From Ignavibacteriota bacterium (lineage in GTDB: Bacteria > Bacteroidota > Ignavibacteria > SZUA-365), in the NCBI GenBank assembly GCA_016218045.1, contig JACRFB010000031.1:72908-136907 (forward strand): 64,000 nucleotides of DNA, given 5' to 3'. The translations under genes were made by a program, and so were the position numbers. This document shows, in pieces, positions 8,405 through 60,021 of the stretch. How positions within the stretch are numbered: position 1 is the stretch's first letter; every line of letters starts with the position of its first letter. The notes below the pieces were generated by a model. That model was not told where the DNA came from. It was given only the letters and a program-made list of their open reading frames with translations, and ran no database searches.

Positions 8405-10420
8405 ATGAAACGCCTGTCGGCATTCTTCCTGACGCTTCTTCTCTGTGCGGCACAATCCGCAATCTCACAACCGGCCGCTGATCCCGATTCGATGCGCGCC
8501 GGTTTTGGTGTGTACGGCAATTATAATCTGAACTTTCACACGGCCGAGTTCAGCAAACTTCCGGGCATCCCGAACTGCTGTCCGCGTTTCGAGAGCGGGG
8601 ATGGGACGGGTTTCACGGCGGGTGTGCTGTACGTGTATCCGCTCGAACGCACCATGTCCATCGACATCCGCGCGGGTTACACAGGATACAGCGCGCTGCT
8701 GTCGTCGCGCGAAGCGACAACAGTCAGCATTGTCGGTACCGCCGCGCCGGGCGAATTTGAACACACGATCGACGCGACTCTGTCGTCCGTTGGAATCGAG
8801 CCGCTCTTTGATTACCGCTTCTGGAAATCGCTGTCGTTTATGGCGGGTCCGCGTCTCGGACTCGTGCTGTCAAGATCCTTCGAGCAGAAGGAACAGATCG
8901 TGGTTCCGGCCGACCGCGGCGTGTTCATGGATACGCAGACGCGCACACGGAATGTGCTCAGCGGCGACATACCCGACGCGGGATCGATACAACTTGCCCT
9001 TCTCGCGGGACTCCGCTATGAAGTGCCTCTCAACCGCGATCGCACGCTCGTGGCCGCTCCCGAAATCATCTTTGCCTACGGTGTGACGCCGGTCGTCAGC
9101 GGCTTCTCGTGGAACGCGCACACATTGCGCCTGGGCGCCTCGGTGCGCTGGCTTCCGAAGGAGAGTGCGCCACCGCCCCCGCCGCCCCCGCCACCACCAC
9201 CTCCTCCTCCCCCGCCGCCGCCGCCGCCCCCCGCGCTGGCCGCATCCATCACCGCCGCCGGTGTGGACAAGGACGGTACCGAGCAGCCGCTGGTCCGTGT
9301 GCGCGTTGAAGAGTTTATCTCCACCGAGATGCGGCCTCTGCTGCACTACGTGTTTTTTGATGAACAGTCCGACGCCATCCCTGCGCGCTACGCGCGCCTC
9401 TCGAAGGAGCAGGCAGAGGCCTTCGACATGCCCGCCCTCCGTTCGACAGGCACCATCGAAATGTATCACAATGTGCTTAACATCATCGGGCGCCGTATGC
9501 GCGCGAATAATTTCGCCACACTGACGCTCACGGGTTGCAACAGCGACGAAGGAGCGGAGAAGGGCAACACCACCCTGTCGCGCAACCGGGCAATTGCGGT
9601 GCGCAATTACCTGCGCGACGTATGGGGCGTGCCCGAATCGCGTCTGCGTGTCGTGGAACGCGGTCTGCCGGAAACTCCCTCGCGTGTCACCGAGCCCGAC
9701 GGCATCGCCGAAAACCGCCGCGTCGAAATCTCCGCGAGTGACCCCGCAATTCTCGACCCTGTCATCACCGGCGACACGCTGCGCACCGTCACGCCGCCGG
9801 TCATGCGCTTCTACCCGCGCGTCGAAGCGGGAGCGGGTGTCGTGGACTGGCGCCTTACCGCCCGGCAGAGCGGCCGCGTGCTGAAGGAGTGGACCGGCCG
9901 CGAGATGCCGCCCGCGTCGCTTGTCTGGAATGTGGCCGAGGAACGCACCAGCATCCCGCGCACCAACGAGCCGATCGTGTACGCGCTGCGCGTCCAGGAC
10001 GCGGCGAATCAGACTGTGGTCACTCCCGATTCGCTTATCCCCGTGGAGCAGATCACCATCCAGAAAAAACGCGCCGAACGGCTGGCCGATCTCGAGATCG
10101 ACCGCTATAACCTGATCCTCTTCGATTTCGATTCGCCCGCGCTCAACGCGCGCAACGTGCGCATCGCGGAATTCATCAAACCGCGCATCGCGAAGAATTC
10201 GAACGTCAAGGTGACCGGGCATACCGACCGACTGGGCGAGACTGAGTACAACCTGCGCCTGTCCGAGGGCCGCGCGCGCTCCACCGCCTCGGCGCTCAAT
10301 GCGAGCAACGCCGTGGTGCAGGGCGCCGGCGAGTCATCCATGTACGACAACGAAACGCCCGAAGGACGATTCTACTGCCGCACGGTGAGTGTTGTTGTCG
10401 AGACGCCGGTCTCCAAATAA
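8405..10420 (+). CDS. OmpA-family outer-membrane protein: N-terminal beta-barrel-like domain, 22-residue poly-proline linker, two OmpA-like peptidoglycan-binding domains
   Basis: The ORF-track start (8174) overlaps the upstream gene. An in-frame ATG at 8405 gives a classic signal peptide (MKRLSAFFLTLLLCAAQSAISQ). The C-terminal region has OmpA-like motifs (NLILFDFDSPAL..VTGHTDRLGETEYNLRLSEGRA; TLTGCNSDEGAEKGNTTLSRNRAIAVRNYL). A P22 run separates the domains. Confidence 0.8.
   Translation: MKRLSAFFLTLLLCAAQSAISQPAADPDSMRAGFGVYGNYNLNFHTAEFSKLPGIPNCCPRFESGDGTGFTAGVLYVYPLERTMSIDIRAGYTGYSALLSSREATTVSIVGTAAPGEFEHTIDATLSSVGIEPLFDYRFWKSLSFMAGPRLGLVLSRSFEQKEQIVVPADRGVFMDTQTRTRNVLSGDIPDAGSIQLALLAGLRYEVPLNRDRTLVAAPEIIFAYGVTPVVSGFSWNAHTLRLGASVRWLPKESAPPPPPPPPPPPPPPPPPPPPPALAASITAAGVDKDGTEQPLVRVRVEEFISTEMRPLLHYVFFDEQSDAIPARYARLSKEQAEAFDMPALRSTGTIEMYHNVLNIIGRRMRANNFATLTLTGCNSDEGAEKGNTTLSRNRAIAVRNYLRDVWGVPESRLRVVERGLPETPSRVTEPDGIAENRRVEISASDPAILDPVITGDTLRTVTPPVMRFYPRVEAGAGVVDWRLTARQSGRVLKEWTGREMPPASLVWNVAEERTSIPRTNEPIVYALRVQDAANQTVVTPDSLIPVEQITIQKKRAERLADLEIDRYNLILFDFDSPALNARNVRIAEFIKPRIAKNSNVKVTGHTDRLGETEYNLRLSEGRARSTASALNASNAVVQGAGESSMYDNETPEGRFYCRTVSVVVETPVSK
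9169..9234 (+). repeat. CCN-codon low-complexity tract encoding 22 consecutive prolines
   Basis: caccgcccccgccgcccccgccaccaccacctcctcctcccccgccgccgccgccgcccccc, directly visible in the sequence. It also generates spurious overlapping ORFs on both strands. Confidence 0.9.
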
Positions 10421-11611: not shown

Positions 11612-12409
11612 TCACGCGTGTACTGTGCGATTGTCGTATCCGCCGTCAGCCGCGGTGCCGTGTGTGGCGGCGTACACACGTTCCATCTCGAGGAGCTGCT
11701 CCACGGTGTTGACGCCGCGAATCTCGTCGAACGATTCGACGATGCACGGCTCCATCCTCCGTCCCTCGCGTGCGAACATCGCAAAGACGTCGGGCAGGTA
11801 ATACTCGCCCTGCGCGTTGTGGTTGTCGACCCGCGCCAGGGCATCGAAGAGGTCCGCCTTGCGGAAGACGTAGATGCCGCTGTTGATTTCGTTCACCGCG
11901 CGTTCCTCGTCGCTTGCGTCCTTGTGTTCGACGATGCGCAGTATCCGCCCGTCGTCGCCGCGGATCACGCGGCCGTATCCTGTCGGATCCGGCAGCACGG
12001 CTGTGAGGACGGTCACCGAGGCGCCGCTCTCACGATGGCGCGCAAGCATGCGTGCCGTGGTCTCGGGCCGCGTCATGGGCGCGTCGCCGCTCAGGATCAG
12101 TACGTCGCCCTCGAACTGCGCGAGCGCGGGACCCGCCTGCATCACCGCGTGCGCCGTGCCGAGCTGCTGCTCCTGCACGGCGATCGAGACGTCGGGATGC
12201 GCCGCGCGGAGAAACTCCTCCACGCTCTCGCGCTGATGACCCACGATGACGATGATGTTTTCCGCCGCGTTTTTCCGCGCGAGTCCGATGACGTGGTCGA
12301 CAAGCGGCCGTCCGCCGAGGGGATGCATGACCTTCGCGAGCGAGGGATTGTTCATGCGTTTGCCTTGGCCGGCGGCCATGATGACGGCAGCGAGAGGAGA
12401 AGAGGACAT
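11612..12409 (-). CDS. Sugar-nucleotide nucleotidyltransferase (GlmU N-terminal uridylyltransferase-like domain only; no LbH acetyltransferase domain)
   Basis: AVIMAAGQGKRMNNPSLAKVMHPLGGRPLVDHVI...LILSGDAPM matches the GlmU/RmlA NTP-transferase fold. At 265 aa it ends before any hexapeptide-repeat domain. Confidence 0.7.
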   Translation of the reverse strand: MSSSPLAAVIMAAGQGKRMNNPSLAKVMHPLGGRPLVDHVIGLARKNAAENIIVIVGHQRESVEEFLRAAHPDVSIAVQEQQLGTAHAVMQAGPALAQFEGDVLILSGDAPMTRPETTARMLARHRESGASVTVLTAVLPDPTGYGRVIRGDDGRILRIVEHKDASDEERAVNEINSGIYVFRKADLFDALARVDNHNAQGEYYLPDVFAMFAREGRRMEPCIVESFDEIRGVNTVEQLLEMERVYAATHGTAADGGYDNRTVHA

Positions 12410-12456
12410 GATACTCCGAAAATCGGTCGGGAAGGGTGCCTGGGGCTGTGTCTCTG

Positions 12457-15946: not shown

Positions 15947-17506
15947 TCAGCGCGGCTGCATGGTGATGACCGGCAGCACCAGCTCTTCCATCGAAATGCC
16001 GCCGTGCTGGAAGCTGTCGCGGTAGTACGCCAGATACTTGTTGTAGTCGGTCGGATACACGAAGTAATAGTCTTCCTTTGCGATCACGTAGTTCACGGTC
16101 ATCCCGCGATTGGGAAGACGGTACTCGGCGGGTTTCGGAATGAGCATCGCCTGCTTCGGATCGGCCTTGACGTTGCGGCCGAATTTGTAGCGGAGATTGG
16201 TCGATGTCTCACGGTCGCCCAGGGCCTTGGTGCCGCGCATGCAGCGCACGCTCCCGTGATCGGTGGTCACGATCACGGTGGCGTCGGGGAACTTCGCAAT
16301 CTGCCGGAACATCGCGAACAGCGACGAATGGGTGAACCACGAGCGTGTCAGCGAACGGTAGGCCGCCTCGTCGGGCGCGATTTCCTTGAGTATGGGCGTG
16401 TCGGACCGGCTGTGCGCCAGCATGTCGACGAAGTTGACGACGATGGCGGTCACGTGATTCTTCGCGAACGAGGCGATGTTCCCCACCATCTGTTTGCCGT
16501 ACTCGGGATCGATGATCTTGTAGTACTTCAGCTCGGTGCGGAGCCGTATGCGGCGCCGCTCCAGCAGTTTCTCGAGCAATTCCTTCTCGTTCTTGTTCAT
16601 CGAATAGTCGTCGTCGTCGCCGCGCGACCACAGCCCGGGCAACACGCGGTCGATGTCGCTCGGATACAGCCCGCTGAAAATCGCGTTCCGCGCGTACGGC
16701 GTGGCCGACGGCAGTATGCCGAGATAGAAGTCCTTTTTGATGGAATAGAGGTCGTGCAGGTGTTGCTCCATGATGAGCCACTGATCGTATCGCATGCAGT
16801 CGATTACGAAGAAAAACACCGGGCCCTTGTTCTCGATATGCGGCACCAGGAAACGGTCTACCACGTTGGGCGACAGCACCACCGATTCGTCCTCGATCCA
16901 GTCGCGGTAGTTTTTTTCCACCACCTTGCAGAACTCCTGATTGCACTCGCGCCGCTGGTCGGCGACGGTCTGCTGCAGCCCGAGTTCGGGGTGCTCGTCG
17001 AGTTCGCTCTCGCGTTCGACGATGCGCCGGTACATCGACGTCCATTCCTCGAGATCCATCGGTCCGAGCAGTGAACGCGACACCTCGTTGAATTCCTGGA
17101 TGTAATCCTGCGCGGTGCGCGAACCGAGGATTTTACGCCCCTCGAGGATCTTCTTCACCACAAGCAGGATCTGGCTCGGATTCACCGGCTTGGTCAGGTA
17201 ATCGCTGATCTTTTCGCCGATGGCCTCCTCCATCAGCGCTTCCTCCTCGTTTTTTGTGACCATCACGACGGGCAGTGTCGGCCGCACATCCTTGATGCGC
17301 GCGAGCGCGGCTAAGCCGCCCATGCCGGGCATCGATTCATCGAGGAGCACGAGGTCCACCGGCGTGTTTTCGACCCAGCTTATCGCGTCGGCCCCGTTCG
17401 TGACGGTGTGGACTTCGAAACCCTTCTGCTCCAAAAATAGAATGTGGGGCTTGAGGAGTTCCACCTCGTCGTCGACCCAGAGAATGCTGCCCTTGTTTTC
17501 GCTCAT
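15947..17506 (-). CDS. porX: PorX-like response regulator (CheY-type receiver + PglZ/alkaline-phosphatase-superfamily domain), putative T9SS regulator
   Basis: Receiver domain ILWVDDEVELL...LVLLDESMPGMGG...VVMVTK, followed by a ~390-aa PglZ-type domain (..VIVTTDHGS..). At 519 aa from the re-called start MSENKGSILWVDDE (ORF codon 27), it matches the size and architecture of P. gingivalis PorX. Confidence 0.75.
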   Translation of the reverse strand: MSENKGSILWVDDEVELLKPHILFLEQKGFEVHTVTNGADAISWVENTPVDLVLLDESMPGMGGLAALARIKDVRPTLPVVMVTKNEEEALMEEAIGEKISDYLTKPVNPSQILLVVKKILEGRKILGSRTAQDYIQEFNEVSRSLLGPMDLEEWTSMYRRIVERESELDEHPELGLQQTVADQRRECNQEFCKVVEKNYRDWIEDESVVLSPNVVDRFLVPHIENKGPVFFFVIDCMRYDQWLIMEQHLHDLYSIKKDFYLGILPSATPYARNAIFSGLYPSDIDRVLPGLWSRGDDDDYSMNKNEKELLEKLLERRRIRLRTELKYYKIIDPEYGKQMVGNIASFAKNHVTAIVVNFVDMLAHSRSDTPILKEIAPDEAAYRSLTRSWFTHSSLFAMFRQIAKFPDATVIVTTDHGSVRCMRGTKALGDRETSTNLRYKFGRNVKADPKQAMLIPKPAEYRLPNRGMTVNYVIAKEDYYFVYPTDYNKYLAYYRDSFQHGGISMEELVLPVITMQPR

Positions 17507-21261: not shown

Positions 21262-23468
21262 ACGGCTGAACCTCCTGATGCGGAATAATATCGTTCGTCA
21301 GTCATAGTCTCGTGTCGTGTCGTGGTGCCGTTCCAGCGGAGCACCAGCAGGGTCAGATCGTCGAGTGCTTCGCCGTTGCCGGTGAATCTGCGAACGGCGT
21401 CGATGATTGCCTCTCCAATGCTGCGCGCGCTTTCGCCCGCGTGTTTTTCCGCTATGTCGGCAAGACGTTCAAAATGGAACTCCTCGCCGTTTTTGTCCCG
21501 TGCTTCCGTCACACCGTCGGTGAAAAGCACGATCACGTCGCCGGGAGCCAGGACCAGCCCTTCCTCTTCGATGGAATCCGCGAACCTTTCGGTGGGGTCG
21601 AGTCCGAGTCCCATGCCGTTCGGTCGCAAATACCTGGAAGAGCCGCCGGAAATATACAGAAGAGGACAATGTCCCGCACGGGAAAATCGCACGGAGCCGC
21701 TCTGTATGTCGAGTACGGCGTAGAGCAGGCTGATGAACGATTTCCGGTCCATCGTCCTGCACAAGGTGTCGTTCATGCGACGGAGCAGCGCCCGCGTCGA
21801 GGTCATGTCGCCGCTCATCGACTGGAATATGCCCTTGACCTGGGCCATGTACAGCGCGGCCGATACGCCCTTGCCCGACACGTCGCCGATGGTGATGCCG
21901 AGCTGCCGTTCGTCGAGCGCGACCATGTCGTAGTAATCGCCGCCTACTTCGAAGGCCGGGATCGACTCGGCGTACACGTCGTATGTCTCGGCGATGGGAA
22001 GCAGGGAGGGAAGGAGGCTGCGCTGCATCTGCCGCGCAAGCAGCAGTTCCTGCTTGAACCGTTCGCGTGATAACGATTCCGCTATGAGCCGGCTGTTCTC
22101 GAGGGCCACCGACACGAGGTCGGCAAAGGCCGACGCGCCCTGAAGCAGATCCTTGTCGAATTCGTACGCGGTCTTTTTATGGATCGCAAGCAGTCCGACA
22201 ATGCCGCCGTACGCGTGCAGCGGCAGCAGCGCGAGTGTGCCGGCCGGCACCGCCGCGCCCGTGTGGTCGATGCGCCGGTCGCGTTGAAGGTCGTGAATCG
22301 TGACACCTTTCCCCGTTTCGAGGACGAGTGCGTGCAGCGGACGCCCGTCGCTCAAGCGCAGGGCGTTGCGCTGTTCCTCGCTCATGTTGCGGAGCGAGAC
22401 GGTGGTGGGCAGCGGCGTGCGCTCGAGCGCGGCTTCGCGGTCGGCGGGCCGCTCGGGCGTGTCGCGGTACACCTCGGCGGGGAACAGTTCGATCCACGCC
22501 GAACCGCCCTCCGTGATATCGAGCGCCAATTGTGTCGATGTCGAAAGCAGATCGTCGAGGTCGAACACTTCGGTCACAAGGCGGCTCATGTTCTGGAACG
22601 ACGAGATCTCAGCCTTCTTCCGGTCGAATTCCTTCGCCGTGGGAAGGTGCATGAGGGTGCTGGCGAACCCGAGTCCCATGTATATCGCGCCGAACAGCAT
22701 CGTGGTCGAGAAAAATGCGTCCATCACGGGATGGAAGTACGCCAGTGCCGATTTGTACACGTCGCTGTCGGCGGCGCTGAGATCGAACACGGAGGCGTCG
22801 ACCGCCAGGATGATGAAGAACACAAAGCCGAAAAACGAGAGTCCGAGATTGGCGAGTTTTTCGCGCCGGGTCAGCACCAGGATCCACGAGAACCGGAACG
22901 AATTCACCACCATCATCAACACGAGACCGAAGGACACAAAGATGTACGTGGCGCCGCCCTCTTCCTGCCGGATGGAGAGGATCGAAAAGACCAGCGCGTA
23001 GGCCGCAAAAAATCCGAGCATCACCAGGTAGTTGCGCCGGGTGTTGCGCCGGCGTTTGATGAAGATCAGCTCGGTGAACGTGAACAGGAGCAGGATCGAC
23101 GCGATGCCCGACGCGATGCCCATGATGAGGGTGACGATCACACTCGTAATGCCGTCGGGCACGAGCCGTCCGTCCATGTTTTCGAACGAGATCATGGAGC
23201 CGATGCGGAACAGTCCGAGGGTCACGAGCAGCACTGTCGCCGTGATGACGGTACTGCCGATCATCTGCACAGGATTTGGTTCGCCGTCCCGCTGACGGCG
23301 CGTCCAGGCCACCGCAAAGGTCCCAGCCCCGGCAAGCAGGAGCAGTCCGTGGAAGAGGTCGCCTCCGGCGGACGATCGCACCAGGGCCTGCCGCGCGATC
23401 ATGTAGACAAAATCGGCCGCGAAGGTCACACCCGAGAGCAGGAACAGTAGTCGGCGATTCAGTGTCAT
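21258..23468 (-). CDS. Membrane sensor PP2C-family serine phosphatase (7TM-type N-terminal sensor, GAF domain, SpoIIE/RsbU phosphatase domain)
   Basis: N-terminal ~260 aa is strongly hydrophobic with multiple TM segments. The middle region is GAF-like. The C-terminal PP2C motifs are GGDYYDMV..GDVSGKGVSAALYMAQ...FTDGVTEA. Overlaps the STAS gene by 4 nt. Confidence 0.8.
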   Translation of the reverse strand: MTLNRRLLFLLSGVTFAADFVYMIARQALVRSSAGGDLFHGLLLLAGAGTFAVAWTRRQRDGEPNPVQMIGSTVITATVLLVTLGLFRIGSMISFENMDGRLVPDGITSVIVTLIMGIASGIASILLLFTFTELIFIKRRRNTRRNYLVMLGFFAAYALVFSILSIRQEEGGATYIFVSFGLVLMMVVNSFRFSWILVLTRREKLANLGLSFFGFVFFIILAVDASVFDLSAADSDVYKSALAYFHPVMDAFFSTTMLFGAIYMGLGFASTLMHLPTAKEFDRKKAEISSFQNMSRLVTEVFDLDDLLSTSTQLALDITEGGSAWIELFPAEVYRDTPERPADREAALERTPLPTTVSLRNMSEEQRNALRLSDGRPLHALVLETGKGVTIHDLQRDRRIDHTGAAVPAGTLALLPLHAYGGIVGLLAIHKKTAYEFDKDLLQGASAFADLVSVALENSRLIAESLSRERFKQELLLARQMQRSLLPSLLPIAETYDVYAESIPAFEVGGDYYDMVALDERQLGITIGDVSGKGVSAALYMAQVKGIFQSMSGDMTSTRALLRRMNDTLCRTMDRKSFISLLYAVLDIQSGSVRFSRAGHCPLLYISGGSSRYLRPNGMGLGLDPTERFADSIEEEGLVLAPGDVIVLFTDGVTEARDKNGEEFHFERLADIAEKHAGESARSIGEAIIDAVRRFTGNGEALDDLTLLVLRWNGTTTRHETMTDERYYSASGGSAV

Positions 23469-31760: not shown

Positions 31761-32851
31761 GACGTCGTCACCGCGCGTTTCCGGATGTGGGATCGCACCG
31801 CGAGCTGCCCGCAGGCGGCGTCGATGTCGCGGCCCGAACTGCTGCGCAGCATCACGGTCGCATTGCCCGCGCGCAGCGCCTCCGCAAAACGTTCGATTCG
31901 GGCCGGAGGACTGGGCCGCAGTTCGAGGCGCGGCGGATGCGAGAGGGCGGAGTCGATGGGGTGGAAGGGTATCAGATTCACCTTCGACGGGACGCGCCGC
32001 ATCAGCCGCAGCAGCCGTTGCACGTCGGCCTCCGTGTCGTTCAGGTCGTCGAACAGGATGTACTCCCACGTTATGCGACGTCTCGTTGCGCGGTAGTAAT
32101 ACTCGGCTGCCGCAATCAATTCCGACAGAGGGTATTTGCGGTTAATGGGCATGAGGACCGACCGGAGCGCATCGTCGGTGCTGTGCAGCGAGATGGCGAG
32201 TTTGGCCTTGCGCTGTTCGTCGGCCATGCGTCGTATGCCGTCCACCAGACCCGCTGTCGACACGGTGATATGGGCGGATCCCACCCCGCAGGTGGTTTCA
32301 TGCGTGATGAGGTCGATCGACTTCATGGTCTCGTCGTAATTGAGCATCGGTTCGCCCATGCCCATGTACACGAGATTCGTGATACGCTGGCCGCTCGCGG
32401 CGAGCGCCCCGAAATACTGTCCCACGATTTCCCAGGCGCGCGCGTTGCGGCGCATTTTCATCGAGGCGGTGGCGCAGAACGCGCAGTCGAGCGGACACCC
32501 GACCTGCGTCGAGAGACAGAGAGTCAGCCGTTTCGGCCTGCCCGCTTCCTCGGTCTCCGACGGAATTAACACCGTCTCGACACGCAAATCGTCTTCAAGT
32601 GTAAACAGGAATTTCCGGGTTCCATCTGCGCTGTTCTGTTCGCCTGCGATCACCGGATGTGTGATGCGGAAGCTTTCAGCCAGAGCTGTTCTTTCCGCCT
32701 TCGGCAGATTTGTCATCAGCCCAAAATCGGTGACGCGCCGGTTGTACATCCAGTAAAACACCTGCTCCGCCCGGTACCGAGGCATTCCGCGCTCCTGTAA
32801 CAGCGAGCGCAACTCGTCGAGTGTTTGTCCGAACAGGTTGAGGGCTTCCAT
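31757..32851 (-). CDS. rlmN: 23S rRNA (adenine2503-C2)-methyltransferase, radical SAM
   Basis: Radical-SAM CPLDCAFCAT (Cx3Cx2C) cluster. RlmN N-terminal region (RAEQVFYWMY). 364 aa. Confidence 0.88.
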   Translation of the reverse strand: MEALNLFGQTLDELRSLLQERGMPRYRAEQVFYWMYNRRVTDFGLMTNLPKAERTALAESFRITHPVIAGEQNSADGTRKFLFTLEDDLRVETVLIPSETEEAGRPKRLTLCLSTQVGCPLDCAFCATASMKMRRNARAWEIVGQYFGALAASGQRITNLVYMGMGEPMLNYDETMKSIDLITHETTCGVGSAHITVSTAGLVDGIRRMADEQRKAKLAISLHSTDDALRSVLMPINRKYPLSELIAAAEYYYRATRRRITWEYILFDDLNDTEADVQRLLRLMRRVPSKVNLIPFHPIDSALSHPPRLELRPSPPARIERFAEALRAGNATVMLRSSSGRDIDAACGQLAVRSHIRKRAVTTS

Positions 32852-32873: not shown

Positions 32874-32985
32874 CGAGAAGGGGAAAGGGAGAATGGTGAA
32901 GGGGGATGGGGGGAGGGGGATGGGGGAAGAGGGTAGAGGGAAGGGGGAAGGGAAAGAGGGTAATAGAGCTAGCCATGTGATGGGG
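32874..32985. repeat. Polypurine G-run-rich tract (potential G-quadruplex-forming) in the divergent rlmN / DUF2279 promoter region
   Basis: + strand reads gaaggggaaagggagaatggtgaagggggatggggggagggggatgggggaagagggtagagggaagggggaagggaaagaggg...tgatgggggaaaag, i.e. more than 10 runs of G3-6 with almost no pyrimidines. Confidence 0.8.
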
Positions 32986-32998
32986 GAAAAGTGTACAT

Positions 32999-33979
32999 TT
33001 GATGATGTTTCGGATGAGAAAACGATGCCGATATTCCGCCGCTGTTCTAACCGCGTTCCTTGTGGTCTGCACATGGAGTGCTCCTGCACAAGAGCGTTCC
33101 GGAAACGTCGAGCAGGATTCCGCGCGCTCAAAATCGGACAGTCTTGTCTCTTTAGTACCCGCGCAGCGCGGAGTCGATCCGTGGCGTTTGTCACTCATCG
33201 GAGGCGCGGCTCTGGGCACACTCGGTGCCACGTACGCGTATCTCGAAGACACCTGGTGGGCCGAAAAGCCGACGAGTTTCCACTTCGATGACGGTGGTGA
33301 TCTGAAGTATGCGCATAACATCGACAAACTCGCGCATTTCTACGGCGGTTCCATCGCCGCCGACATGTTCACCCGCGCCCTGCTCTGGTCGCGGGTGCCC
33401 GAGCGCAGCGCCGTCTGGCTGGGATTTGGGCTCGGCGTCTTTGTGCAGATGGTCATCGAACTGAAGGACGGTTTTGCGCCGCGCTGGGGCTACAGTGTGT
33501 GGGATGTGGGGATAGGCAGTGCGGGAGCGCTGTACTACACCGCAAAACATTACTTCCCGGCTCTTGCCGCGACCGATGTGAAATTCAGCTACTGGCAGTA
33601 TTCGGACAAGTACTTCTCATGGATCAAATCCGGCGGGGGCGCCACCTGGAACGACGACTACATCAATCAGACGTACTGGCTCTCGTTCAAGGTGAATTCG
33701 TATCTGCCCTCCTCGAGCGAAAAGTACTGGCCCGACTGGCTGGCTGTCGCGATTGGCGTCGGCGTGGATGACGCGCTCGACGGCTATGAGAAGAACAACA
33801 CAAAACTCCATCCCGGCAATCTCGAGATTTTTCTCGCGCTCGATGTGGACGTGACACAGATCCTCCCATCCGATAACGGACTGTGGGAAACGATAAAGCA
33901 CTATCTGAATTACATCAAATTCCCCGCGCCCGCTGTGCGTCTCACCCCCACGACTGTCTGGTATGGCCTGTATTTTTAG
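32999..33979 (+). CDS. DUF2279-like secreted/periplasmic protein (tandem paralog 1)
   Basis: Signal peptide. TWWAEKPTSFHFDDGGDLKYAHNIDKLAHFYGG...W, ending ..VWYGLYF. Paralogous to the next gene, which has NAWWKDQRTSFHFTEDAAYALNVDKAGHFLGG...VGYGLYF. The family assignment is from memory of DUF2279 signatures. Confidence 0.5.
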   Translation: MMMFRMRKRCRYSAAVLTAFLVVCTWSAPAQERSGNVEQDSARSKSDSLVSLVPAQRGVDPWRLSLIGGAALGTLGATYAYLEDTWWAEKPTSFHFDDGGDLKYAHNIDKLAHFYGGSIAADMFTRALLWSRVPERSAVWLGFGLGVFVQMVIELKDGFAPRWGYSVWDVGIGSAGALYYTAKHYFPALAATDVKFSYWQYSDKYFSWIKSGGGATWNDDYINQTYWLSFKVNSYLPSSSEKYWPDWLAVAIGVGVDDALDGYEKNNTKLHPGNLEIFLALDVDVTQILPSDNGLWETIKHYLNYIKFPAPAVRLTPTTVWYGLYF

Positions 33980-41306: not shown

Positions 41307-41659
41307 GATATCCTCCTCGGCAGCAAAACGTGAACTTGTTGGGTGAATCACTGCATCGTACGCGGGCCTGTTGCCCGATGTTGCGGCGGCTTTAGGTCAC
41401 AAATTCGTCCCTGTGTTTTTTGATCTGTTAACATCAATACCGGTCGTGTCTCCTGTCTTCTCATGCTCGTGTTAGGATTCAGGAGGAAGGAGACAGGAGA
41501 CAGGAGGCACGGATCTGCCAGTACGTGATATTGATTGCGCATTCGAAAATCCCTATGTTTCATATCTTATTCCGCGCTTGTGTGCCGCCCGCAGAGTGCG
41601 GCGGAGACAACGCGAAGGTGTCAAGAAATGCAGCGCGCAGGCGCGACCCGTCCCCCGCA

Positions 41660-56206: not shown

Positions 56207-56314
56207 CGAACGGCGGCGGTTTCATCTCGACCGCGCGCGACGTAGATTTCGTCCCATCCCCTCTCACCCTCGGCGCGCCATGTGCCGCCGTTGATCCGTA
56301 TCACACACGAACGC

Positions 56315-57328
56315 ATGAAACCAGTCATCGCTATCTCGCTTGGCGACGTCAATGGCGTCGGGCCCGAAGTCATACTCAAGGCCTTTGTCCGCTCCGATCT
56401 CTTCACCCAGTGCCGCCCGGTGGTTTATGGTCCGGCCGAGTGTATGGAGTGGCGTGAATCGCGCCTGGGCACGGGACTTGAATTTTCGCGCATCACATCG
56501 TTGGAAGAGGCCCGCGAGGGGGGCATTTCGCTGTTCGACACAGGCGGCGTCTTTGATCCGTCGCAGATCGGCCGCGCGACCGCGGAGGCGGGCGCGCACG
56601 CGATACGTGCGATCGAAGCCGCATATGCGGCAGTACGCGACGGCGGCGCCGAGGCACTGGTCACCGCGCCGGTCTCGAAGGAGGCGATAGCGCTTGCCGG
56701 CAGTCCGTACAAGGGCCACACCGACATGCTGGCCGCGATGGCGGGTGCGGCCAACCGCGTGATCATGATACTGCGGAGCAATACGCTTACCGTGGGTCTG
56801 GTGACCATTCACGTGCCCTTGCGCGAGGTCGCGCCGCTGGTGACACACGAACGCGTGCTGCGCACCATCGAGGCCGGCCGTTCCGCGCTCGAGACGGATT
56901 TCGGCGTGCAGCGTCCTCGGCTCGCGGTGCTCGCGCTGAATCCGCACGCGGGCGACGGCGGCGCCATCGGCGGCGAGGAGATCGAGGCCATCGTGCCTGC
57001 GATCGCGGAGGCACGGGCGGCGGGCATCGCCGTTGAAGGACCCTTTCCCGCGGACGGCTTTTTCTCCGCGCACAACCGCGATCTCTTCGACATGGTCGTT
57101 GCCATGTACCACGATCAGGGACTCATTCCGTTCAAGCTGCAGGCGCGGGGGCGGGGAGTCAACGTCAGTTCCGGTCTGCCCATCGTCCGCACATCGCCCG
57201 ATCACGGCACCGCGTACAACATCGCGGGGCAGGGCATCGCGAGCGCCGACAGTATGCGAGAGGCGATACTCGCGGCGCGAACCATCGCGGTTAATCGCGG
57301 CATCGCCTCTGCGGGCGCGAGTCGATGA
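56315..57328 (+). CDS. pdxA: 4-hydroxythreonine-4-phosphate dehydrogenase
   Basis: MKPVIAISLGDVNGVGPEV.., ..GHTDML.., ..LNPHAGDGG.., ..AMYHDQGLIPFK.. Start re-called at MKPVIAI (ORF codon 12). Confidence 0.85.
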   Translation: MKPVIAISLGDVNGVGPEVILKAFVRSDLFTQCRPVVYGPAECMEWRESRLGTGLEFSRITSLEEAREGGISLFDTGGVFDPSQIGRATAEAGAHAIRAIEAAYAAVRDGGAEALVTAPVSKEAIALAGSPYKGHTDMLAAMAGAANRVIMILRSNTLTVGLVTIHVPLREVAPLVTHERVLRTIEAGRSALETDFGVQRPRLAVLALNPHAGDGGAIGGEEIEAIVPAIAEARAAGIAVEGPFPADGFFSAHNRDLFDMVVAMYHDQGLIPFKLQARGRGVNVSSGLPIVRTSPDHGTAYNIAGQGIASADSMREAILAARTIAVNRGIASAGASR

Positions 57329-57981
57329 TAGAATTCCACAACGTCCGTCTCACCTTCAGCGCGCAGGTCGTGCTCGAGAGGGCGAACCTTCTGATTTCGG
57401 AAGGAGAGTTCGTGTACATCATCGGTGAGACCGGCGTCGGGAAAAGCTCCTTTCTGCGACTCATATACATGGACGTGCTGCCGTCCTTCGGCCGCGTGCG
57501 CGTGGGCGGATACGATTCGTCCGCGCTGCGGAGGCAGCAGATTCCCTTTCTGCGGCGGAGCATCGGCATCGTGTTTCAGGACTACCGGCTGCTCGAGGAC
57601 CGCACCGTCGCCGAAAATGTCGCCTTCGCGCTGCACGTCACGGGCGCAAAACGACAGATGATCGGGCCGCGCGTGCACAAGGTGCTTTCGGAGGTCGGGC
57701 TCTCGTCGAAGGAGCATGCCATGCCTTCCGACCTGTCCGGCGGCGAGAAGCAACGCGTGGCCATCGCGCGTGCGCTGGTGAACGATCCCGTGATTCTTCT
57801 CGCGGACGAACCCACGGGTAATCTCGATCCCGTCGCATCCCGCGACATCCTTGCCATCTTCGATCGCATCAACAAGCGTGGCACCGCCTGCATCATTGCC
57901 ACGCACGACTACGGTCTGCTCGTCCAACGTCCCGGCCGTGTCATCAAGATTCAGAATCGGAATTTTTATGATGTGGTGTGA
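57325..57981 (+). CDS. ftsE: Cell-division ABC transporter ATP-binding protein FtsE
   Basis: 218 aa. GETGVGKSS, LSGGEKQRVAIARAL, LLADEPTGNLDP. 4-nt overlap with pdxA. Confidence 0.8.
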   Translation: MIEFHNVRLTFSAQVVLERANLLISEGEFVYIIGETGVGKSSFLRLIYMDVLPSFGRVRVGGYDSSALRRQQIPFLRRSIGIVFQDYRLLEDRTVAENVAFALHVTGAKRQMIGPRVHKVLSEVGLSSKEHAMPSDLSGGEKQRVAIARALVNDPVILLADEPTGNLDPVASRDILAIFDRINKRGTACIIATHDYGLLVQRPGRVIKIQNRNFYDVV

Positions 57982-58228
57982 TAAGTAGATGGTAGATGAG
58001 TAGATGGTAGATAGTAGACACCAAGCGTTACATTCCTCCAGATAGTTATTTCGGTCCCCAGTCCCCAGTCCCTCGTCCCCAGTCCCCAGTCCCTCGTCCC
58101 CAGTCCCCAGTCCCTCGTCCCCAGTCCCCAGTCCCTCGTCCCCAGTCCCTCGTCCCTCGTCCCCAGTCTCCAATCCCAACTCCCGATTCCTAACTCCTAA
58201 ATCCTAATTCCCAACTCCTCACTCCACC
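57982..58228. repeat. Heptanucleotide tandem-repeat array: 5 x GTAGATG-like, then ~17 x TCCCCAG/TCCCTCG (perfect 21-nt super-unit x4), decaying into ~9 degenerate TCCYNNN units that end at the start codon of the downstream gene
   Basis: Directly visible as taaGTAGATGGTAGATGAGTAGATGGTAGATAGTAGAC ... tccccagtccccagtccctcg x4 ... tctccaatcccaactcccgattcctaactcctaaatcctaattcccaactcctcactccacc ATG. The minus strand reads (CTGGGGA)n. Confidence 0.9.
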
Positions 58229-59959
58229 ATGCGACCGCCGCTTCATGCCTTGCAGATTCCCGATGCGGAATTCGTCGTATGCGACGTTGAGACGACGGGC
58301 TTGAGTCCGGACCACAACAGGATGACGGAAATCGCGCTCGTCCGTGTGGCGGAGGGACGGGTGGTGGAGAAGTACCAGACGCTGATCAATCCCAGGCAGT
58401 TCATTCCACCGTTCATCACGGAACTGACGGGCATTACCAACGAGATGGTCTACTCCGCTCCCGATGCGGACGAGGTGCTGCCGGCCATACGCGCATTCAT
58501 CGGCGACGCAGTCTTTGTCGGACACAATGCGCGTTTCGACTTTTCCTTCGTCGACGCCGCGCTGCGGCGCGCGGGGCTCGCGCCTTTGGAGAACGCGGTG
58601 TTGTGCACGGCGCGCCTCGCGCGGCGCCTCGTTCCCGCGCTGGCGAAGAAGAATCTCGGCTCCATCGCGCGCCATCTCGGCATCAGCAATCCCCGCGCGC
58701 ACCGCGCCTCGGGTGACGCGGAAACGACCGCCCGCATCCTGCTGCACTTCGCCGGCATGGTGTCGGAGGAACACGACGTGGCTGATCTGGGCGACCTGCT
58801 CTCGTTCCAGAACAAACCGGTGTATCGGGTCACCACACCGCCGAAAAACTTCCTGAAACTGCAGCCGGCCCTGGCGGCCCTGCCGCATGAACCCGGCATC
58901 TATTTCTTCCACGACGCGCGCGGTCACATCATCTACATCGGCAAGGCGCGGGATCTGTCGGACCGCGTGCACTCGTATTTCCGCTATAATGTCGGGCACA
59001 GCGAAAAGGTCCTCAAACTCGCGCGCGCGGTGGCGTCCATCACCTGGAAAACCACCGACACCGAACTGTCGGCGCTGCTCGCCGAGGCGCGGGCCATACG
59101 CCAGCATCAGCCGCGCTTCAACGCGCTGCTTAAAAGTGCGCGCGCGTATCCGTTCATCCGCATCGATTGCGCCGACACGTTCCCGACGATCTCCTGGACC
59201 TACGACATGGAGGACGACGGCGCCGACTATTACGGACCCTTCAGCTCGCGCTTCGCCGTCGAACGCGCACTCGAGGTGATCGATCGCATCTTCCTCATTC
59301 GCGAATGCGACGGACGCATCACGCCCCGCGATACCGCAACCCCGTGCCTGTACTACGACATCAAACGCTGCGGCGCGCCCTGCGCTTCACTGCAGTCTGC
59401 CGAGGAGTACGCCGAGGAGGTGCAGCGCGTGCGACAGTTCCTCCGCGGTCGGCACGACTCGGTGCTCAACGGGTTGCGGGCGGCGATGGAGTCGCGTGCC
59501 GAGGCGCTCGACTTCGAAGGAGCGGCGTCGGTGCGCGACCGTCTGCGCGATCTCGAACGTATCGTGCGGCAGCAGCGTGTCATGGCGCGCTCGGTCCGTT
59601 ATCAGAATCTGGTGATCGTCACTCTCGCACGTCGCACCTTCGTGGAGGTGCACTGCATGAAATCCGGCATGCTCGTGGCGCAGGAACTGCTGGATCAGCG
59701 CGCGTGCACGCGGCAGAATGTGCGCACGTTGCTGTCGGAGTCCTTCTTCAGCGGCCAGAACGAACTGTTCCTCGGCGGGAAGGAAGACATCGCGGAGATG
59801 CGCATCATCGCCTCATGGTGCCTCACGCGGCGTGATGAGTCCGTCGTGATCGAGGCCGACGATCATCAGACACGCGATGCGCTGATCGACGCGGTGTACG
59901 CGGCGGTGCGCGGGCTGGGCAGGGACGAGGCGCCGGCACGCTTCGCGGAAAGGGCGTAA
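58229..59959 (+). CDS. DnaQ-type 3'-5' exonuclease fused to a GIY-YIG/UvrC-N-terminal-like nuclease (Cho-like excinuclease fusion)
   Basis: N-terminal DEDD exonuclease motifs (FVVCDVETTGL; ..FVGHNARFDFSFV..; ..HRASGDAETTARIL). Middle GIY-YIG (PGIYFFHDARGHIIYIGKARDLSDRVHSYF...ELSALLAEARAIRQHQPRFN). UvrC-like Cys region (YYDIKRCGAPC). This architecture resembles mycobacterial Cho-like proteins. Confidence 0.7.
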   Translation: MRPPLHALQIPDAEFVVCDVETTGLSPDHNRMTEIALVRVAEGRVVEKYQTLINPRQFIPPFITELTGITNEMVYSAPDADEVLPAIRAFIGDAVFVGHNARFDFSFVDAALRRAGLAPLENAVLCTARLARRLVPALAKKNLGSIARHLGISNPRAHRASGDAETTARILLHFAGMVSEEHDVADLGDLLSFQNKPVYRVTTPPKNFLKLQPALAALPHEPGIYFFHDARGHIIYIGKARDLSDRVHSYFRYNVGHSEKVLKLARAVASITWKTTDTELSALLAEARAIRQHQPRFNALLKSARAYPFIRIDCADTFPTISWTYDMEDDGADYYGPFSSRFAVERALEVIDRIFLIRECDGRITPRDTATPCLYYDIKRCGAPCASLQSAEEYAEEVQRVRQFLRGRHDSVLNGLRAAMESRAEALDFEGAASVRDRLRDLERIVRQQRVMARSVRYQNLVIVTLARRTFVEVHCMKSGMLVAQELLDQRACTRQNVRTLLSESFFSGQNELFLGGKEDIAEMRIIASWCLTRRDESVVIEADDHQTRDALIDAVYAAVRGLGRDEAPARFAERA

Positions 59960-59976
59960 TATCGTCCGAAAAAAAA

Positions 59977-59995
59977 GGCCGGGGAAAACCCGGCC
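59977..59995 (-). terminator. Intrinsic terminator candidate (serves the minus-strand gene ending at 60022; hairpin is shared with the convergent + gene)
   Basis: aaaaaaaa-ggccggg-gaaaa-cccggcc. On the minus strand the stem is followed by a U8 tract. Confidence 0.65.
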
Positions 59996-60021
59996 TCCGT
60001 GCTCGTAGTACGGCAGGTGTG

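Follow-up and report, generated by a model that had tools for sequence, protein, structure and literature searches.

The 64,000-nucleotide (nt) stretch of DNA analysed here, positions 72,908 to 136,907 of contig JACRFB010000031.1 from an uncultured Ignavibacteriota bacterium (hereafter the window), carries an array of C-rich heptanucleotide tandem repeats in the gap between an ftsE-like ABC ATPase gene and the gene for a Cho-like nuclease. This array is probably a member of the GGGGA(C/T)T/AGTCCCC class of bacterial heptamer repeats, with a length driven by slippage, and not a switch dedicated to the nuclease. No new regulatory mechanism emerges from the locus. The gap itself (57982–58228, 247 nt) lies between two genes of the + strand and has three parts (Table 1): an array of GTAGATG units, a non-repeat spacer and 25 C-rich heptamers. 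The GTAGATG array begins 4 nt past the ftsE stop codon, is embedded in a C-depleted stretch (57946–58021) and, in a three-frame translation, gives stops in all three frames. The C-rich array (58054–58228, 175 nt) keeps a single register throughout, and its last base directly precedes the nuclease ATG at 58229. A first-pass annotation of the window had correctly placed the end of the array at this start codon. It had also described a single run of some 35 heptamers, about 30 of them uninterrupted, that fills the whole gap. The strong 7-nt array holds up, with 25 units in register of which only 16 are near-identical; the single run does not, as the first 72 nt of the gap hold the different, C-free array and the 35-nt spacer.

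The 16 near-identical units form a homogeneous core, in which a perfect 21-nt periodicity extends over 96 nt. They are followed by nine degenerate units (GTCTCCA, ATCCCAA, CTCCCGA, TTCCTAA, CTCCTAA, ATCCTAA, TTCCCAA, CTCCTCA and CTCCACC), in which three TAA codons at 7-nt spacing shut all three frames. A G-depleted stretch spans 58160–58236, so that the 77 nt leading up to and covering the AUG are almost free of G. Over 58054–58228 the sequence identity is 0.77 at lag 7 and 0.84 at lag 21, and Tandem Repeats Finder (TRF) scores the array at 150 for period 7 and at 220 for period 21. A lag-7 identity of at least 0.8 is reached in the window only by this array and by a second one at 32.9 kb, and 50-mers depleted of G or C are confined to the two arrays of the gap and, again, to the array at 32.9 kb. 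Chance does not produce such periodicity, and the 7-nt array is real. On the minus strand the unit reads (CTGGGGA)n, a rotation of GGGGACT. The array is not a CRISPR locus, as had been recognized from the outset: its 7-mers are contiguous and without spacers, compared with CRISPR repeats of about 24–48 nt that alternate with unique spacers. An N-terminal extension of the nuclease and a peptide encoded by the repeat were also considered. Both are ruled out, because stop codons on either side of the core interrupt all three + frames.

Comparison with a sister strain reveals how the arrays change. The short allele was found in contigs of three samples, two from Logan assemblies and one from an ENA k141 assembly, that encode further members of the 90%-identity protein cluster of the nuclease. 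These assemblies are 99.8% identical to one another and identical within the array; over 11.8 kb they show 95.0% identity to the window. The gap measures 121 nt in the sister strain and has the same architecture as in the window, with nine units in the C-rich array against 25 and three units in the GTAGATG array against five. The 11.8-kb alignment contains three indels, of 14 nt (2 units), of 112 nt (16 units) and, elsewhere, of one base; the only multi-base indels are therefore multiples of seven, and both fall in the arrays. The 112-nt core block is absent from the sister strain; in a sequence this repetitive, its gap can be placed at more than one position in the array. Both alleles retain the non-repeat spacer, the degenerate 3′ stretch and an array that ends exactly at the ATG. 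The two larger indels demonstrate a change in unit number of the slipped-strand type, which had been anticipated from the repeat itself, and the arrays have thus varied in length by whole 7-nt units. The homogeneous 16-unit core is a strain-specific expansion that lies beside an older, decayed nine-unit part, and its recent growth proceeded in 21-nt blocks of three units. This variation in unit number is one between sister strains about 5% apart and carries no evidence on rapid switching within a population. The two alleles, with nine and 25 units in an otherwise identical architecture beside a defined gene, provide a natural contrast for testing the effect of unit number.

More distant orthologues of the nuclease define the state of the junction outside this pair. 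The distance from ftsE to the nuclease is −4 nt, an overlap, in L085 (62% nuclease identity to the window), 28 nt in L003 (70%), 35 nt in L088 (59%) and 39 nt in L086 (59%), and none of these four loci contains an array. In L004 (67%) the junction extends over 110 nt and holds about 9.4 copies of (GAAGAGT/GGGGAAG) at 9900–9965, an array that is unrelated in sequence to that of the window and purine-rich on the sense strand. The same heptamer upstream of the orthologous gene, for which the first-pass annotation had proposed to search, was thus found in the sister strain and in none of these five lineages. With junctions this short (−4 to 39 nt), transcription probably continues from pdxA-ftsE into the nuclease gene. 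The simplest reading would be that the ancestral junction was tight and operon-like, and that arrays arose there later. A scan of contigs with the nuclease protein found no relative, and a second scan with a 30-sequence alignment, the patterns of which were too general, returned UvrC/Cho relatives from many phyla and none from the close clade. A JGI contig (L132) encoding a nuclease at least 90% identical to that of L004 ends, at its positions 1–40, inside an array of the GAAGAGT/GGGGAAG type; since the contig ends in the array, it allows no comparison of copy number.

Consensus scans returned no sigma-70-like promoter in the gap or beside it and no terminator in the gap. No TAnnTTTG motif of the Bacteroidota type was present in the gap even when one mismatch was allowed, the scans found no promoter consensus in the 35-nt spacer (58019–58053), and a search of the gap against Rfam gave no match at E values up to 1. 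It had been proposed that each unit gained or lost would shift promoter spacing and so make the array a phase-variation switch for the nuclease. Such an effect of 7-nt steps is without support, because no promoter was found on which they could act, and the tight orthologue junctions and the unrelated array in L004 do not favour the proposal either. The context is operon-like instead, since pdxA and ftsE overlap by 4 nt, the orthologue junctions are short, the gap is devoid of recognizable promoters and terminators, and a terminator-like hairpin follows the nuclease gene (59974–59998), where it likely marks the end of the pdxA-ftsE-nuclease transcription unit. The only exact intergenic TAnnTTTG match in the window (TACATTTG) lies at 32994–33001; it overlaps the TTG start of an open reading frame (ORF) at 32999, and the true start of that ORF may therefore be located further downstream.

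The region upstream of the nuclease ATG contains no Shine-Dalgarno match and no GGAG-type motif. Use of such sites is weak in the window as a whole, with 14 of 45 starts preceded by one under a lax criterion. The sense RNA of the array folds worse than all 200 of 200 shuffled sequences (z = +2.94), the antisense DNA likewise folds worse than its shuffled controls, and no hairpin or inverted partner for the array was identified. A weak long-range pairing is predicted between the GTAGATG array and the start-codon region (centroid energy −9.5 kcal/mol). The minus strand of the array comprises 16 G-runs and four non-overlapping canonical G-quadruplex (G4) motifs, half of the eight in the whole window, and the predicted energy of the antisense strand is −65.5 kcal/mol when G4 formation is allowed, compared to −39.2 kcal/mol when it is not. 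These values support a G4-forming potential of the minus strand, as had been suggested, and oligonucleotides of this class of repeat have been seen by circular dichroism (CD) to adopt such structures (PMC4692102).

Taken together, we propose that the array occupies a transcribed spacer between ftsE and the nuclease gene in the pdxA-ftsE-nuclease gene string. The sense transcript would present a C-rich, G-poor and nearly unstructured leader that continues up to an AUG without a Shine-Dalgarno site. The G-rich strand would be the template strand; once unwound, it might form up to four G-quadruplexes, which could impede RNA polymerase. A change in length would then be unable to switch the gene on or off, because the array is non-coding and does not lie between recognizable promoter elements. 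Any effect on nuclease expression would be graded at most, and could arise through read-through from ftsE, leader length or the access of ribosomes.

Heptamer arrays of this kind also occur well beyond the gap. Five period-7 arrays are present in the window, with the AGTCCCC unit at the studied locus only. The GAAGGGG array at 32.9 kb has its G-rich strand antisense to a minus-strand gene that starts at 32851, 26 nt away, and thereby follows the same placement rule as the studied array. The short CAGGAGA array is the sole exception in the window to the rule that the G-rich strand lies antisense before an ORF, because its sense strand is purine-rich; the GTG start that it precedes stems from a rough ORF call based on G+C content at third codon positions (GC3). 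Period-7 arrays reach a density of 7.8 per 100 kb in the window and 4.6 per 100 kb in L003 and L004 together, compared with 0 per 100 kb in L085, L086 and L088 and 1.2 per 100 kb in 80 other bacterial loci (840 kb), a background made up of the loci returned by the over-general second contig scan. In L003 and L004, arrays of 7-, 8- and 9-mers directly follow stop codons, and in one case an array lies inside a gene.

An exact-match scan of JGI metagenomes for the 20-mer CCCCAGTCCCTCGTCCCCAG returned 39 contigs, nearly all with a G+C content of 62–72% and with short AGTCCCC arrays of about 3–13 units. A recurrent group among them (L093, L107, L116, L120 and L127) belongs to the Gemmatimonadaceae, with a 98% identical protein, and L107 has one 7-nt unit more than the others of the group, among them L093, the flanks of which are identical to its own. 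Among 29 distinct metagenome loci, seven have the C-rich strand in sense orientation no more than 40 nt from a predicted start, and two have the G-rich strand in that position. The genes that follow these arrays are unrelated in function and encode an acyl-CoA dehydrogenase, an ABC transporter, an M20 peptidase, a PLP decarboxylase and a HAD hydrolase. As the AGTCCCC unit is found both in Ignavibacteriota and in high-GC soil contigs, the class is wider than described. The array at the nuclease appears to be one of many in its lineage and not a nuclease-specific device; the notion of a switch dedicated to the nuclease is further weakened by the presence of like arrays beside unrelated genes and by a published study that judged phase variation unlikely (PMC4692102).

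Several observations weigh against this assignment. In two of the three closest lineages an array occupies the ftsE-nuclease gap, and it always abuts the start codon, so that selection at the site is possible instead of neutrality. A promoter of a type outside the scanned consensuses could sit in the 35-nt spacer, and co-transcription with ftsE is deduced from spacing and synteny only. No second AGTCCCC array exists in the 64 kb, and dispersal of the exact unit within the genome is therefore not shown. Finally, the copy number of 25 rests on one assembly, as the independent short-read k = 31 contigs of run SRR12113407, from the same sample, break within the perfect core.

The foremost alternative, a milder version of the switch proposed at first, is a copy-number rheostat, in which the array would lie in a long 5′ leader or intercistronic region and additional units would lower, or raise, the output of the nuclease gene in a graded, heritable and reversible manner. 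We regard this as unlikely. The difference of 9 versus 25 units between sister strains, the abutment of the array on the start codon in both alleles and a template-strand G4 load that scales with unit number all agree with such a device, but the observed variation separates strains that are 5% apart in sequence, not members of one population, and no promoter was found. The related lineage L004 has an array in the same gap; the other relatives (L003, L085, L086 and L088) have none at the junction. There is a precedent in hmw1A, for which more 7-bp repeats between promoters P2 and P1 result in less transcript and less protein (PMC8262952). Arrays of the present class, however, flank unrelated housekeeping genes, and the published analysis of the class reported neither a regulatory role nor a tie to contingency-type genes (PMC4692102).

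A more far-reaching reading is that G-poor heptamer arrays directly before starts, such as the AGTCCCC-type arrays of Ignavibacteriota and Gemmatimonadaceae and their counterparts in Nostoc, are selected, Shine-Dalgarno-independent leaders, and that their unit number acts as a heritable rheostat; we consider it a long shot. If it were true, the arrays would offer ribosomes or single-strand-binding proteins an unstructured platform in the RNA, or the template DNA would carry a G-quadruplex brake, and the 9 and 25 units of the two strains would amount to a heritable rheostat on a DNA-repair nuclease.

A selected leader or binding platform as such, functioning in Shine-Dalgarno-independent initiation, as a standby site or through sites for single-strand-binding proteins (S1, Csp or CsrA-like), seems very improbable. 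It would account for the unusually unstructured sense RNA (z = +2.94), for the near absence of G from the 77 nt that lead up to and cover the AUG, and for the missing Shine-Dalgarno match in an organism that uses such sites little. The degenerate nine-unit part beside the AUG is kept in the sister strain, yet at about 94% it is no better conserved than the flanking coding DNA at 95%. In soil contigs the C-rich strand is the more frequent sense strand within 40 nt of a start (7/29 versus 2/29), and repeats of the same geometry were described by MacGregor in 2015 (PMC4679880); on the other hand, the array that L004 has in this gap is rich in purines on its sense strand, many arrays are located past stop codons and not before starts, and no binding protein is known.

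That the array is an assembly artefact, a collapsed, expanded or chimeric repeat join, is scarcely conceivable: the k = 31 contigs of SRR12113407 break in the core and leave its copy number without independent confirmation, and a contig of a relative (L132) likewise stops within its array, but both junctions of the long allele were recovered independently in that run, the perfectly periodic stretch, at only 96 nt, is within the reach of 150-nt reads or large k-mers, the short allele occurs in three assemblies with a unique junction sequence, and the flanking genes and synteny are intact. A metagenome scan for the unique left junction (AGTTATTTCGGTCCCCAGTCCCC) gave 0 matches. In general, heptamer arrays disrupt short-read contigs and give rise to long spurious ORFs (here one of 325 amino acids), and copy numbers in metagenome-assembled genomes (MAGs) need to be treated with caution.

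The features of the locus and of the two further arrays are listed in Table 1.

Table 1. Features of the ftsE-nuclease locus and further heptamer arrays of the window (positions in the window; aa, amino acids).
Feature	Position	Strand	Remarks
First array (GTAGATG), ~4.7 copies, one indel	57985–58018	+	C-free; TRF score 52
Non-repeat spacer, 35 nt (CACCAAGCGTTACATTCCTCCAGATAGTTATTTCG)	58019–58053	+	Few substitutions in sister strain
Homogeneous core, 16 heptamers: GTCCCCA ×10, GTCCCTC ×6	58054–58165	+	21-nt superunit
Degenerate 3′ part, 9 heptamers, G-poor	58166–58228	+	More A/T than core
ftsE-like ABC ATPase gene	57325–57981	+	Pfam ABC_tran 3.2e-31; NCBIfam TIGR02673 FtsE 8.2e-78
DEDD (DnaQ-like) exonuclease fused to GIY-YIG/UvrC-like nuclease with UVR motif (Cho-like)	58229–59959	+	576 aa
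Terminator-like GC-rich hairpin with A-run and T-run flanks	59974–59998		10 pairs, 7 of them G-C; between convergent nuclease and Omp85-like genes
Shadow ORF (MGLETGDEGRGTGDEGL...), 325 aa	57202–58179	−	Antisense across array and ftsE; not a gene
Second heptamer array (GAAGGGG), ~10.9 copies, degenerate	32877–32952	+	Divergent intergenic; 2 of the 8 canonical G4 motifs of the window
Third, short array (CAGGAGA), ~3.9 copies	41480–41506	+	Divergent intergenic; 19 nt before predicted + start GTG 41525

The product of the ftsE-like gene scores 260.9 bits against TIGR02673, slightly below the cut-off of 264.85, and every ftsE orthologue that we examined is 218 amino acids long. Its TGA stop codon is immediately followed by TAA, and its start lies within the 4-nt overlap with pdxA (56282–57328). 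The nuclease matches Pfam RNase_T (2.2e-36), GIY-YIG and UVR and, with 567.7 bits compared to a cut-off of 495, NCBIfam NF005906; its start codon is backed by the alignment of orthologues, and the protein is 100% identical to MBI5647020.1 from an Ignavibacteriota MAG. The order of a GWxTD-domain gene, pdxA, ftsE, the nuclease gene and a convergent Omp85-like gene is kept in relatives. The minus-strand ORF that runs across the array had been dismissed as an artefact, and we concur: over the ftsE part its GC3 is 0.42, in contrast to 0.77 for ftsE and 0.77–0.81 for real genes, and ftsE is identified on the + strand.

In the whole window, a scan for tRNA genes found none, and no Rfam family matched at gathering scores. 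By synteny with relatives, the region at about 46–52 kb presumably holds dnaN, recF, dciA, mnmE and gyrB, and the window may be near the replication origin. Upstream of pdxA, positions 56243–56271 read GTAGATTTCG, then TCCCATC CCCTCTC ACCCTCG. At its left edge, the studied gap has a similar sequence (GTAGAC...TTATTTCG GTCCCCA), and the segment upstream of pdxA may represent a decayed short array of this type.

Further repeats were noted in the course of these comparisons. The GGGGAAG-type unit of the array at 32.9 kb is also the unit in the ftsE-nuclease gap of L004, and the CAGGAGA array, whose sense strand is rich in purines, could also serve as a Shine-Dalgarno-like GGAGG. In the relatives, 8-mer arrays directly after stop codons comprise about 4.5 copies of (GAGACACG) and about 9.5 copies of (TCCAGTAC), a 9-mer array with about 11.7 copies of (GTGAATCGG) overlaps a stop codon and is called as a 61-amino-acid gene, and a 120-bp tandem repeat is present in 2.7 copies; these longer-unit repeats are located at 11731–11766, 12348–12423 and 17162–17482 in L003 and at 21453–21557 in L004. 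At 16320–16354 of L004, (CCCACTC) ×5 lies in the coding region of a predicted secreted protein with a signal-peptide-like N-terminus and DUF7948, where it encodes ...DSPTPHSPLPTPNS...; since a 7-nt change would shift the frame, this array is a better candidate for phase variation than the studied one. The background set of 80 loci includes (TTTCAAC) in about 13.4 copies, (TTACGAA) in about 8.1 and (CAGTCGG) in about 9.3, several of them in Ignavibacteria/Bacteroidota loci, as well as (TGGGACT) ×5 in an Acidimicrobiia contig; the period-7 arrays of this set were found at 8513–8606 of L007, 24–58 of L014, 6299–6355 of L073 and 1066–1129 of L029. Among the metagenome contigs, AGTCCCC-type arrays with the GTCCCTC variant are common in those from soil and rhizosphere (L090–L128), and inverted pairs of G-rich and C-rich arrays in L096/L104, L097 and L099 could fold as hairpins.

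A literature search with the bare heptamer string returned only noise. The studied unit we take to be the cyanobacterial STRR1 ('short tandemly repeated repetitive') consensus. The STRR repeats of cyanobacteria are 7-bp units for which the function was stated as unknown (PMC2670836). Regulation by a heptamer repeat has its best precedent in the hmw1A/hmw2A system of Haemophilus influenzae, in which (ATCTTTC)n is located between promoters P2 and P1 and more units lead to less expression (PMC8262952). The window array shares with it the unit length of 7 nt, a number of roughly 10–25 units, the position upstream of a gene and the variable unit number. However, the hmw1A repeat is flanked by two mapped promoters, changes its unit number within clonal lineages in the course of infection and governs expression of a surface adhesin, whereas the window array has no promoter in our scans, varies between strains 5% apart and precedes a housekeeping-type gene for a repair nuclease, and like arrays flank unrelated genes. 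Contingency repeats are associated with surface, host-interaction and restriction-modification genes; the downstream gene here encodes a repair-type nuclease of the DEDD/GIY-YIG kind.

A second system is formed by the TAACTGA heptamers, which are found a few nt before starts without a Shine-Dalgarno site in Beggiatoaceae, Cyanobacteria and Bacteroidetes (PMC4679880). Long arrays of this repeat occur in some Bacteroidetes and are absent from close relatives with short gaps, strains differ by 7-nt indels, and contigs end in the arrays; a role in translation via S1, Csp or CsrA-like proteins was suggested (PMC4679880). The window array has the same geometry, with forward heptamers that end at a start codon lacking a Shine-Dalgarno site, and the two systems also agree in the occurrence of long arrays in some genomes and of short, repeat-free gaps between the same neighbours in relatives, in their 7-nt indels and in their contig breaks. 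In contrast, the window units nearest in sequence, TAACTCC and TAAATCC, match TAACTGA at only 5 of 7 positions, and the copy number is far above the 2–6 typical of Beggiatoaceae.

The closest counterparts are the repeats described by Rehm et al. in 2015, GGGGA(C/T)T in Nostoc sp. PCC 7120 and GGGAATC in Xanthomonas (PMC4692102). Nostoc PCC 7120 has 89 arrays of up to 26 units. The arrays are dispersed through the genome, are over-represented in non-coding DNA and lie preferentially between co-oriented ORFs; their G-rich strand is either the non-coding one, at 0–50 bp before an ORF, or the coding one, immediately past a stop codon (PMC4692102). Repeat length varies between relatives, most of the Xanthomonas repeats are transcribed, and repeat-derived oligonucleotides form G4 and i-motif structures in vitro according to CD; no regulatory role was found, and phase variation was judged unlikely (PMC4692102). 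Heptamer repeats of this type are thus on record from cyanobacteria and xanthomonads, with a function that the papers cited here still give as unknown.

The window differs from this class in three respects. Its host is an uncultured Ignavibacteriota bacterium with 62% G+C and neither a cyanobacterium nor a xanthomonad; the array has a 21-nt higher-order unit with the GTCCCTC variant; and the exact unit forms a single array in 64 kb, the other arrays of the lineage being built from GAAGGGG, GAAGAGT, CAGGAGA and 8- or 9-mers. The two agree in the following features. The unit is identical, GGGGACT on the antisense strand, with 10 of 25 heptamers reading GTCCCCA, six GTCCCTC and nine degenerate. 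The array is intergenic between co-oriented + genes, its 25 units compare with up to 26 in Nostoc, its unit number varies between relatives (25 versus 9, and 5 versus 3 for the GTAGATG array), its sequence is predicted to have G4 and i-motif potential, and there is no link to gene function. The orientation rule of Rehm et al. describes both arrays of the gap, as GTAGATG follows the ftsE stop on the coding strand and the main array, 0 nt from the ATG, has its G-rich strand antisense. The occurrence of the identical unit with the same placement rule in an uncultured member of the Ignavibacteriota widens the host range of the AGTCCCC/GGGGACT class.

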